From Candidatus Bathyarchaeota archaeon (GTDB taxonomy: Archaea > Thermoproteota > Bathyarchaeia > Bathyarchaeales > Bathycorpusculaceae), in NCBI GenBank assembly GCA_963826715.1, contig CAWGYA010000008.1, positions 288,001 through 352,000 of the forward strand: DNA of 64,000 nt, given 5' to 3'. The notes beneath the pieces are model-generated. The model did no database searches. It was not told where the DNA came from and saw only the letters and a list, made by a program, of their open reading frames with translations. Shown in pieces: positions 24,876 to 26,497 of the stretch. The first letter of the stretch is position 1. Each line of letters starts with the position of its first letter. Position numbers and translations under genes: made by a program.

Positions 24876-26497
24876 AACGAACATTTTTGCTTGTTGCTTT
24901 TCTTGCCTTTGTGTTCGCTTTGTCAACTGTGAGCTTTGCTAGTGCCCAAATTGACTATTCAGTCGACCATGAGTGGGCTCAAATCTTCATTAACCAAGAT
25001 GGCACAATCGACTTAACGTATAATATCACTCTCAGTGTCAACTCAGGAATTATCCATGGTTTCTATGTTGGGCAGCCCAATGGTGATTTCACCATCGGTC
25101 AAGCTATGGACGAATTTGGCAATCAACTACAAATCTCAGATGCGAGCAGCGGCAGCGACTCTCGCATTGACGTAACCTTAAACCAACCCTTAACCCAAGG
25201 ACAATCAGTCTGGTTCCAAGTCACCACCAATGTGGGAAGCATGATAAGCAACGACACCAGCAACCCTGGTAATTATGGAATGCAATTCATCCCTCAGTGG
25301 ATTTCGGATGTACCCATCAGCGATGTGAGAGTACAAATTATACTCCCTGAAGGCGTAGGCATAGACAATGTGAAAACTACAACGAACTTCTACAATGCCT
25401 CCTCTGTAGTCGAAGGACACTTAGCGGTTTACTGGGAGAAGCCCCAGATTGGCGCTGGAGAACAATTCATGGTGGGCGTTTCTTTCCCAGCAAGTTTTCT
25501 GCCAAACTACACACCACCCAGCCCAGGAGTGTTCGACGCAGCAGGCGAAATCATCGCCACCGTGGGTGTAATCGCTGCTGTTCTTATATTCTTCGCCATC
25601 ATCATTTGGGCAATTCGCAAAAACAAAAGCAGCTATACCACACCGAAGATCAGCATGGAAACACTAGGAATCAAGCGGGGCCTAACAGCGGTTGAAGCCT
25701 CATACCTACTGGATCTCAAGCCACAGCAAATTGTTACCGAAATCCTCTACAGTCTACTACAGAAACGCGCGGTCTGGACCGTTGAAACTAAGCCCTCACT
25801 TAAACTAAAAGTGCTCCAACCGTATGAGAACAAAACTGGCACAGCCGAAAATCCACTTTATTACTACGAAATCGATTTCCTCCACTCACTCAACTCTGAC
25901 GGTAGTCTAAACGAAGAAAAACTAGCTCACACCATCATGTTTCTCCGTGATACTGTCGAGCAGAAGCTACAAGGTTATAATCGAAAAGAAACAGTAGATT
26001 ACTATCGAAAAATCATCGCGACCGCATGGGGGCAAGTAGAAAAGGCAGGCACCCCAGAACTAGCATCGAATGCCTATGACGAACAATTACTTTGGCTGAT
26101 GCTTGATCCCGCCCAGAAAAGTCACACTGAAACAGCGTTCAAGAATCGACCTTTCCAACCGAATCCACTTTGGTTCTGGTGGTGGTACGGCTACACAGTC
26201 TATCATCCCCACCCTATAGTTACACCAAACGTTAATTCACCATTACAATCTGGTAAACCACCGGCAATTCCAGGCGCCGATTTCGCAAATAACATTGCCA
26301 CCGCCGTTGAAAAAACATCGAACAACATTGTTGTCAATATCGAAAAATTCGCCAATGCCATTGTTCCACCACCACCAAAAGCTAGCCACACTCCCGCCCA
26401 CAAAGGAGCCGATTGTGTATGCGCCTGCGCAGCATGCGCGTGTGCCTGCGCCTGCGTGAGTTGTGCTTGTGCATGTGCAGGAGGAGGAGGGCACTAA
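24869..26497 (+). CDS. Signal-peptide, single-TM membrane protein (DUF2207-like ectodomain) with 10-Cys C-terminal tail
   Basis: Signal peptide ending ASA, beta-rich ectodomain (INQDGT, VRVQIILP, VGVSFP), TM near aa 228-250, tail CVCACAACACACACVSCACACAGGGGH. Confidence 0.88.
   Translation: MVKRTFLLVAFLAFVFALSTVSFASAQIDYSVDHEWAQIFINQDGTIDLTYNITLSVNSGIIHGFYVGQPNGDFTIGQAMDEFGNQLQISDASSGSDSRIDVTLNQPLTQGQSVWFQVTTNVGSMISNDTSNPGNYGMQFIPQWISDVPISDVRVQIILPEGVGIDNVKTTTNFYNASSVVEGHLAVYWEKPQIGAGEQFMVGVSFPASFLPNYTPPSPGVFDAAGEIIATVGVIAAVLIFFAIIIWAIRKNKSSYTTPKISMETLGIKRGLTAVEASYLLDLKPQQIVTEILYSLLQKRAVWTVETKPSLKLKVLQPYENKTGTAENPLYYYEIDFLHSLNSDGSLNEEKLAHTIMFLRDTVEQKLQGYNRKETVDYYRKIIATAWGQVEKAGTPELASNAYDEQLLWLMLDPAQKSHTETAFKNRPFQPNPLWFWWWYGYTVYHPHPIVTPNVNSPLQSGKPPAIPGADFANNIATAVEKTSNNIVVNIEKFANAIVPPPPKASHTPAHKGADCVCACAACACACACVSCACACAGGGGH

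Follow-up and report, generated by a model that had tools for sequence, protein, structure and literature searches.

A cysteine-alanine tail in a family of prokaryotic membrane proteins, a candidate in-cis substrate of an adjacent radical SAM/SPASM enzyme

We have analyzed a 64,000-nucleotide stretch of DNA from Candidatus Bathyarchaeota archaeon (assembly GCA_963826715.1, contig CAWGYA010000008.1, positions 288,001 to 352,000 of the forward strand), which we refer to as the window. One of its genes encodes a 542-residue membrane protein, here called the target, that ends in a run of alternating cysteines and small residues; the next gene encodes a radical S-adenosylmethionine (SAM)/SPASM enzyme with a PqqD-like recognition domain of its own (RRE, for recognition element of ribosomally synthesized and modified peptides). 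The cysteine-alanine tail is probably an in-cis "core peptide" substrate of this adjacent enzyme on the cytoplasmic side of the membrane, as suggested by conservation, gene linkage and domain architecture. When thioether cross-links formed by the cysteines are included in this statement, we consider the whole of it about as likely to be right as wrong. More tentatively, and at somewhat less than even odds, the tail may be cross-linked into a polycyclic thioether or a protein-derived redox or metal cofactor at the inner membrane face, on a receptor-like protein with an outside domain of the Ost1/ribophorin I fold, and this may represent a new class of membrane-protein modification.

To our knowledge, nearly all RRE-bearing radical SAM/SPASM enzymes described so far produce small secreted peptides or cofactors. 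The present system links this machinery to the tail of a large membrane protein, in at least 1474 sequence clusters drawn from both prokaryotic domains, Asgard archaea among them. If the proposed reading is true, a full-length membrane protein would be matured in situ by radical chemistry borrowed from peptide natural products, and a tail that is cross-linked or forms a cofactor would amount to an unrecognised, widespread protein modification of anaerobes. The new class would be marked by a leader-in-cis logic and, in some lineages, by a dead-enzyme scaffold. We found no curated family name for the system, and a literature search, to which most subscription journals were closed, brought up no paper on it.

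A conserved cysteine-alanine tail

The target gene (24869..26497; this and all other features of the target, the enzyme and the small zinc-ribbon protein described below are on the + strand) is an open reading frame (ORF) for a single-pass type-I membrane protein with a weak resemblance to DUF2207. The last 27 residues of its product (26414..26494, then TAA) are C-V-C-A-C-A-A-C-A-C-A-C-A-C-V-S-C-A-C-A-C-A-G-G-G-G-H. The candidate core segment (26414..26497) thus consists of a 21-residue Cys-Ala block (aa 516-536), in which Cys occupies alternate positions except at two one-residue slips, followed by A-G-G-G-G-H and the stop codon. An earlier reading of the sequence without database searches (the sequence-only reading) had pointed out that all ten cysteines of the protein are packed into this C-terminal run, and the translated ORF bears this out: there are none in residues 1-507 and ten in the tail. 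Under random placement, the chance that all ten would fall within the last 27 of 542 positions is p = 9.4e-14. The tail-coding DNA and its junction with the next gene show zero differences in contigs from two public soil-metagenome runs, covering positions 24182-26859 in one run and 26190-26582 in the other; both runs belong to one study, and one of them is possibly the source sample of the window. The presence of a Cys-Ala block at the end of the protein is confirmed.

The tail is a constant feature of the family. A word-indexed search, in which 8000 candidates were scored, gave 1604 homologues of the target at E <= 0.001, and the best 120 of these were listed; they are 70-78% identical to the target, and the named ones all come from Bathyarchaeia. 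The sequence-only reading had singled out loss of the tail in close homologues as an observation that would speak against it, but the tail is present in 120/120 of the listed proteins, with the first Cys substituted in seven and one Cys-Ala unit missing in one; its length is unchanged in 119. At the level of cluster representatives (1.84 billion in total), a profile of the target matches 1474 at E <= 0.001, 970 at 1e-10 and 484 at 1e-30. The Cys-Ala block with G-G-G stands at the end of 138 of the 150 best representatives, and the remaining 12 end before the profile does and look like fragments or frameshifted calls (their contigs were not inspected). An alignment of 18 targets from many phyla (22-60% identity to the one in the window) has 23 invariant columns, 16 of them within the last 20 residues. 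Across tails the Cys positions are invariant, the residues in between vary (A, V, S, H, N, D, E, G; only A, V or S in the window), and the G-G-G that follows the block shows little or no variation.

Codon usage shows at which level this pattern is maintained. The window tail uses mixed codons (TGT 5, TGC 5, GCA 4, GCC 3, GCG 1, GCT 1), and when 15 archaeal tails were compared codon by codon (2520 comparisons), 1394 of the differences were synonymous and 182 were non-synonymous; relative to the window tail there are 9-15 synonymous and 0-4 non-synonymous differences per 24 codons. The codons are saturated synonymously while residues are kept and length is constant, and therefore the tail is not a slippage product; on this codon evidence it is under strong protein-level selection, as the sequence-only reading had proposed from the mixed codons. 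An origin by DNA slippage, that is, a low-complexity artefact without function, can draw on one weak hexamer array reported by Tandem Repeats Finder (26420-26456, 70% matches, score 33). We give it next to no weight and regard it as ruled out by the codon counts and by the constant tail length in homologues, to which the agreement of independent contigs can be added.

Such a block might also be explained as an additional membrane anchor, formed by a tail-anchor helix or by S-acylated cysteines, since hydropathy marks residues 512-540 as hydrophobic over at least 21 residues. The shape of the block in relatives speaks against this. In most of them it comprises only 12-16 residues between runs of Gly, too short for a membrane helix, and a soluble stretch of 12-90 residues can come after it. 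The block is also non-helical in the structural model, and no acyltransferase was found among the conserved neighbours. We therefore consider a membrane anchor very improbable, and the lipidated tail that the sequence-only reading had offered as one option found no support.

Linkage between tail and enzyme genes

A pattern search suggested by the sequence-only reading was carried out at the DNA level. In a set of genomes with one representative per prokaryotic species, a degenerate pattern for C-A-C-A-C-A-G-G-G found at least 119 stretches, and such tails recur across many phyla. Linkage was counted in 77 loci of at least 3 kb among the matches listed. In 44 loci the motif lies no more than two residues from the stop codon, and 40 of them have an enzyme homologue on the same strand, directly downstream of the target in 34 and upstream in six. 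In another 24 loci, which we call the Bacillota type, 12-40 further residues follow the block and contain a conserved R-A-G-C-S-x-K-D-F-Y stretch; the enzyme is found in 23 of these, directly upstream in 18. The nine off-frame or fragment matches served as an internal control, and only two of them have the enzyme, both being Bacillota-type fragments. When ORFs were clustered over 65 loci, target and enzyme were joined in one cluster (65 loci). The module is present in Bathyarchaeia, Heimdallarchaeia, Methanomassiliicoccales, Chloroflexota, Planctomycetota and Bacillota.

Linkage also holds in the reverse direction. An enzyme orthologue (E <= 1e-80) occurs in ten of 201 genomes sampled across the phylum, the window genome included, and in all ten a target bearing the Cys-Ala block is encoded directly upstream. 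The block is terminal in eight; in the other two (L135 and L136, from one family of the window's phylum) it is internal, with an additional domain of some 90 residues behind it. That the block is not necessarily C-terminal argues against any chemistry dependent on a free C-terminal carboxyl group. The distribution of the cassette is patchy, with the enzyme present in only one of three other genomes of the same genus. In the window the ATG of the enzyme gene follows the TAA of the target gene directly (TAAATG), and in 20 relatives the spacing is an ATGA overlap in seven and 0-58 nt in the others. Judging from this arrangement, the two genes are translationally coupled.

Domain architecture and relatives of the enzyme

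The enzyme (26498..27808) has 436 residues and matches the Pfam domains Radical_SAM (E 3.7e-22) and SPASM (E 1.2e-10). Its N-terminal PqqD-like recognition domain (aa 12-100, 26531..26797) is predicted to form four short strands (within residues 12-49) and three helices (within 51-100) in an AlphaFold2 model of the enzyme (mean predicted local distance difference test score, pLDDT, 82.9; predicted template-modelling score, pTM, 0.86). The CX3CX2C motif for the SAM-binding 4Fe-4S cluster (C136, C140 and C143; 26903..26926) is invariant in 21/21 aligned orthologues. The SPASM region (27536..27784) contains C347, C361, C379, C416, C419, C425 and C429, of which six are invariant and C347 is conserved in at least 90%; the conserved motifs of the enzyme family are C-x12-G-x4-C and C-x2-C-x5-C-x3-C. 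The Pfam PqqD model, applied to six orthologous N-terminal domains, passes its cut-off in three and falls just below it in one.

Structural comparison with Foldseek placed SkfB first (E 3.8e-19, 398 columns, template-modelling score 0.65-0.73), followed by SuiB (1.9e-15) and CteB (about 1e-14); matches were also seen to PqqE (1.6e-13), anSME (about 1e-10) and the epimerase EpeE (about 5e-10). SkfB, SuiB and CteB are RRE-fused peptide maturases, and all three match over their full length. A profile search of sequences with solved structures likewise put SkfB (1.3e-32) and PqqE (4.9e-28) on top. According to this architecture in sequence and model, the enzyme falls within the class of RRE-dependent radical SAM/SPASM maturases that includes SkfB, AlbA, CteB and SuiB. 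It does not belong to any of their curated families: all 25 NCBIfam radical SAM models shown for the window enzyme are below their cut-offs, the best being NirJ2 with 134.5 bits where 500 are required; for five orthologues from other phyla, too, every NCBIfam radical SAM score stays below its cut-off. Public records label orthologues "radical SAM protein" or "PqqD family peptide modification chaperone", and one is mis-named tRNA wyosine synthase. The UniProt identifiers of the radical SAM compendium of PMC10288494 include neither of two Heimdall orthologue accessions, but these may be more recent than that data set, and their absence carries no weight in either direction. The window genome has a single orthologue (670 bits, the next paralogue scoring 194 bits), and the target gene is also present there in single copy.

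Topology of the target and the candidate leader

The layout of the target was derived from its hydropathy profile, its sequence and a model built with AlphaFold (mean pLDDT 75, pTM 0.42), which agree with each other. A signal peptide or N-terminal hydrophobic segment (aa 1-27, 24869..24949; hydropathy 1-28, model helix 2-23) with a basic n-region and an A-x-A end, as read from the sequence, precedes an outside beta-sandwich domain (aa 29-207, 24953..25489) that is confident in the model. The single transmembrane helix (aa 222-251, 25532..25621; hydropathy 220-253, model helix 222-251) is followed by the basic residues R-K-N-K. The cytoplasmic domain (aa 274-444, 25688..26200) appears, from the secondary structure of the model and from blocks conserved across phyla, to comprise a winged-helix-like unit and a helical bundle. 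A low-confidence linker then leads to a predicted pair of amphipathic helices (aa 469-498, 26273..26362; helices 469-487 and 491-498, pLDDT 61-69) that begins with G-A-D-F-A, and a Pro-rich polar linker (aa 499-515, 26363..26413), disordered in the model, leads to the tail. Residues 502-542 are modelled as a disordered, flexible appendage (pLDDT 27-40).

The Pro-rich stretch and the helix upstream of the tail, which the sequence-only reading had described, are therefore both found. An alignment of the helix region, which it had recommended, showed that the helix is conserved family-wide: the blocks of the layout above, among them the helix pair starting with P-G-A-D-F-A and a T-N-P-x-P motif, are shared by 23 targets from Bathyarchaeia, Nanoarchaeia, Methanomassiliicoccales, Heimdallarchaeia, Thermoplasmatota, Chloroflexota, Acidobacteriota, Planctomycetota and others. 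In bacterial relatives the linker is Gly/Ser-rich instead of Pro-rich. The helix pair is our candidate for an in-cis leader that the RRE of the enzyme would recognize. Taken together, the coupling to an RRE-fused enzyme, the two-way linkage across phyla and the conserved helix support the proposal of the sequence-only reading that the tail is a core-peptide-like segment behind a helix that may bind an RRE.

Gene fusions also bear on this arrangement. In a Thermoguttaceae locus (L016, 497-4030), an enzyme copy is fused to the N-terminus of the target: ORF residues 201-566 align with enzyme residues 4-394 at E 5e-20. The fused copy retains the RRE, but a deletion has removed its C-x3-C-x2-C segment, and it no longer has the G-G-E, P-C-Q-S and SPASM motifs. 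A short distance upstream of the fusion gene there is a live enzyme gene. From these losses, the fused copy is catalytically dead. ORFs of a length similar to the fusion are found in L047 and L055. A different fusion is seen in a Lachnospiraceae target (L006, 2624-4099), which has a CxxC...CxxC zinc ribbon between the transmembrane helix and the Gly/Ser linker. In the window, a zinc ribbon of this type is found in a separate small membrane protein of 122 residues (24507..24875) with two N-terminal transmembrane helices by hydropathy and the ribbon at its C-terminus (MJ0042_CXXC, E 7.7e-07); the end of its gene overlaps the start of the target gene by 7 nt. Homologues of it are encoded upstream in 35 of the 44 loci with a terminal motif, and it is found in 33 of the 65 clustered loci. 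As far as can be read from their sequences, the fusions argue for physical contact among target, enzyme and zinc-ribbon protein on the cytoplasmic side.

The signal peptide, the basic stretch after the transmembrane helix and the fusion with a cytoplasmic enzyme-like domain indicate that the tail is located in the cytoplasm, where an oxygen-sensitive enzyme could reach it; we infer this from sequence, model and fusions. A tail predicted to lie outside the cell, away from the enzyme, was the second observation that the sequence-only reading had listed as unfavourable, and the predicted topology is the opposite.

A cytoplasmic tail of this composition could also be an unmodified metallothionein-like metal or Fe-S site (Zn, Cu or Fe-S), with the enzyme acting elsewhere or merely docking; metal or Fe-S binding was also the alternative offered by the sequence-only reading. 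Its sequence does have the hallmarks of metallothionein-like segments, namely dense C-x-C spacing (ten Cys in 21 residues) and no aromatic residues; the apo model is disordered, and a zinc-ribbon protein is a partner. The Cys gaps of the archaeal-type tail are palindromic (2,2,3,2,2,2,3,2,2), which would permit Cys-Cys pairs across a hairpin, but this is weak evidence, because 4/36 placements of two longer gaps are symmetric (chance about 0.11) and the pattern applies to the archaeal type only. An unmodified metal site leaves unexplained both the two-way coupling to an RRE-bearing maturase-type enzyme across phyla and the dead enzyme copy fused to the target. On balance we judge it improbable as the sole explanation of the tail. 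Metal binding and covalent modification are not mutually exclusive.

Proposed maturation of the tail and competing chemistries

If the tail is an in-cis substrate, maturation might proceed as follows. The protein would insert so that the beta-sandwich faces outward and the C-terminal 290 residues lie in the cytoplasm, as sequence, model and fusions suggest. The PqqD-like domain of the enzyme would dock on helix pair 469-498, which would act as a leader that is never cleaved off, and the Pro- or Gly-rich linker would allow the disordered Cys-Ala block to enter the active site. Reductive cleavage of SAM would lead to abstraction of a hydrogen from an alpha-carbon within or close to the block, that of a small residue such as Ala, Val, Ser or Gly, and a Cys sulfur would then close a thioether bridge of the sactionine type. 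Repeated bridging would produce a rigid polycyclic cap that is retained on the protein. The small zinc-ribbon membrane protein probably holds or presents the target.

The closest enzymes of solved structure form either thioethers between Cys and an alpha-carbon (SkfB) or cross-links of other kinds. The choice of thioether chemistry is further guided by six active-site positions that have been proposed to sort sactionine synthases (Precord et al. 2023, PMC10288494). In the window enzyme, motif adjacency and alignments place Y144, T177, I204, T230, Q380 and S381 at these positions, and all except I204 are invariant in the enzyme family. The corresponding residues are Y, T, F, S, Q, L in SkfB, S, S, I, S, H, A in PqqE and F, L, T, S, I, A in SuiB (by alignment), and Y, T, I, S, K, L in StsB and F, F, T, S, H, Q in CteB (as listed in PMC10288494). 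The window enzyme thus shares Y, T and Q with SkfB, matches StsB (Y, T, I, S) at Y144, T177, I204 and T230 by motif offset, and agrees with CteB at none of the six positions; PqqE and SuiB are less similar to it than SkfB and StsB are. This comparison leans toward sactionine-type enzymes such as SkfB and StsB, with the reservation that it is crude: StsB was placed by motif offsets, the third position is variable within the family and the fourth is S or T everywhere.

The tail may also be a substrate for a different chemistry, such as epimerisation, formation of formylglycine or dehydro-residues from Cys, C-C or S-S linking, or a methylation-coupled step. The linkage evidence applies equally to this possibility, and SPASM enzymes of other chemistries (anSME, EpeE, PqqE and SuiB) are also fold neighbours. 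Epimerisation to an alternating D/L stretch would suit a strictly alternating, hydrophobic block (hydropathy 2.25). Methylation is brought in by a class-I SAM-dependent methyltransferase, a recurrent same-strand fourth gene in 23 of 43 type-A loci (for example L004:4034-4795, L005:5277-6041, L053:6545-7318, L079:6520-7302 and L062:1912-2799). It belongs to the Methyltransf_11 family (E 1e-15 to 2e-25 in five of five tried), and its members from archaea and bacteria are mutually related; the window genome lacks an orthologue, its best tblastn match (45 bits) covering the SAM-binding part only. What sets such chemistries behind thioether formation is that the Cys residues are invariant and the intervening residues variable, which fits Cys as the chemical partner over hydrophobic filler, and that the closest matches in structure and sequence, along with the crude active-site profile, point to sactionine synthases of the SkfB and StsB type. 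In addition, anSME-type enzymes are not known to have an RRE. We consider a chemistry other than thioether formation unlikely, while giving it clearly more weight than an unmodified metal site.

Several observations weigh against the tail as a thioether-bridged substrate of the enzyme. Four loci with a terminal motif lack the enzyme; one of them (L017) stops 89 nt past the motif, while the other three (L011, L065 and L072) encode a full target with a terminal tail and have no enzyme homologue within 4 kb on either side. The N-terminal domain of the window enzyme itself, like that of one other orthologue, has no match to Pfam PqqD. The window enzyme is shorter by 8-11 residues at its C-terminus (27785-27808) than its closest relatives (L014, L041 and L054), and the last Cys of their SPASM region is absent from it. 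A Cys at this position usually supplies the fourth ligand to the second auxiliary cluster. It is likewise absent in several Chloroflexota orthologues, and the DNA 3' of the enzyme stop gives no indication that a nonsense mutation arose recently. The methyltransferase hints at additional or different chemistry in its lineages. In known sactipeptides, which are small exported peptides, the donors lie on one strand, whereas the substrate here is a protein of 542 residues. Finally, the active-site comparison is subject to the reservation given above, and every chemical step of the scheme is one that we infer by computational analysis.

Comparison with known maturation systems

The sporulation killing factor system (SkfB/SkfA) and AlbA have the same order of RRE, radical SAM core and auxiliary-cluster domain as the window enzyme, and in the case of SkfB/SkfA the Cys-bearing substrate is also encoded next door. 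SkfA is a small peptide with a leader and undergoes cleavage and export, whereas the substrate in the window would be the tail of a membrane protein. In contrast to SkfA-type processing, there is no protease or exporter among the conserved neighbours; neither protease nor transporter families were recurrent among the gene families of the 65 loci. NCBIfam scores also set the window enzyme apart (88.7 bits for SkfB against a cut-off of 300, and 78.6 for AlbA against 850). A sactipeptide is made from a small precursor that loses its leader and yields a free or exported core, and the window system does not fit this description.

The tail itself most resembles hairpin sactipeptides. In the StsB/StsA and BlaB/BlaA systems, as described in PMC10288494, the donors form an alternating C-x-C-x-C run and the acceptors are Gly alpha-carbons; in StsA, Cys2, Cys4 and Cys6 are bridged by the radical SAM enzyme to Gly15, Gly13 and Gly11, respectively. 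The window tail, with C-x-C-x-C blocks and then an invariant G-G-G, is similar in outline. StsA has three Cys on one strand and relies on a separate RRE protein, StsC, while the window tail has ten Cys and no separate acceptor strand and its enzyme has a fused RRE. The NCBIfam StsB model gives 78.5 bits on the window enzyme against a cut-off of 625.

Maturases of ranthipeptides (CteB/SCIFF, PapB and QhpD) combine an RRE, a radical SAM domain and a full SPASM domain with Cys-rich substrates, as the window system does. QhpD cross-links an enzyme subunit and not an antibiotic peptide, and is the nearest precedent for maturation of a protein. The PapB model scores only 72 bits on a Heimdallarchaeia orthologue, compared with a cut-off of 340. 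Several other systems captured by NCBIfam models (the ACGX system, GeoRSP, His-Xaa-Ser, SynChlorMet and the TIGR04222 membrane proteins) follow the same concept of a SPASM enzyme paired with a repeat- or Cys-rich target. Matches of the window enzyme to rSAM_ACGX (1.1e-20), GeoRSP (9.5e-34) and HxsC (1.5e-19) are weak, all being far below the curated cut-offs.

We propose that the system operates in the manner of RRE-guided radical SAM maturases that act on Cys-rich cores, and that it departs from them in having as its precursor a membrane protein of full size, which combines leader and core in cis and is never released. Further differences are the unique Cys-Ala alternation, a zinc-ribbon membrane protein in the module and, in some lineages, the dead enzyme copy and the methyltransferase.

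Relation to DUF2207 and Ost1/ribophorin I

Similarity of the target to DUF2207 is at the edge of detection. The Pfam model of the DUF2207 N-domain matches it below threshold (E 4.5e-4, 20.9 bits against a cut-off of 24.4), and on repeat scoring DUF2207 (PF09972) reached 21.1 bits alone and 25.2 bits when neighbouring in-frame stretches were counted. Many of the listed target homologues carry a precomputed PF09972 assignment, and Bacillota DUF2207 clusters appear in a protein atlas as more distant neighbours of the target (score 0.93). No NCBIfam model was matched by any of seven targets (threshold 0.01 for the one in the window and 0.001 for six from other phyla).

The structural model suggests a further relationship. 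Like Ost1/ribophorin I, the target is predicted to have an outside beta-sandwich directly before a single transmembrane helix. A search of solved-structure sequences with the target profile gave chance-level matches only (best E 0.52), i.e. no sequence-level link. Neither DUF2207 nor Ost1, as these families are described, has a Cys-Ala tail or an enzyme partner, unlike the target. If the proposed reading is true, it would offer a first functional handle on DUF2207-like proteins, the outside domain of which resembles a subunit of the eukaryotic oligosaccharyltransferase.

Neighbouring genes and a tandem duplication

The gene after the enzyme (27903-29138) encodes a putative HAD/SerB-like phosphatase domain (TIGR00338, E 3.4e-24, below the cut-off) fused to a C-terminal region with several hydrophobic segments. 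Homologues are found 3' of the cassette in two other Bathyarchaeia loci (L041 and L054) and in none of the other 75 loci analyzed. No RNA record is listed for this region.

Upstream of the cassette there is a perfect 793-bp tandem duplication, positions 21561-22353 being identical to 22354-23146. No public contig bridges the 22353/22354 junction, and the duplication may be real and recent or an assembly artefact. The repeat unit spans roughly the first 175 codons of a gene for a pyridoxal-dependent decarboxylase (22617..24110) together with the DNA in front of it, and the duplication leaves a truncated decarboxylase copy of 222 residues at 21824..22492.

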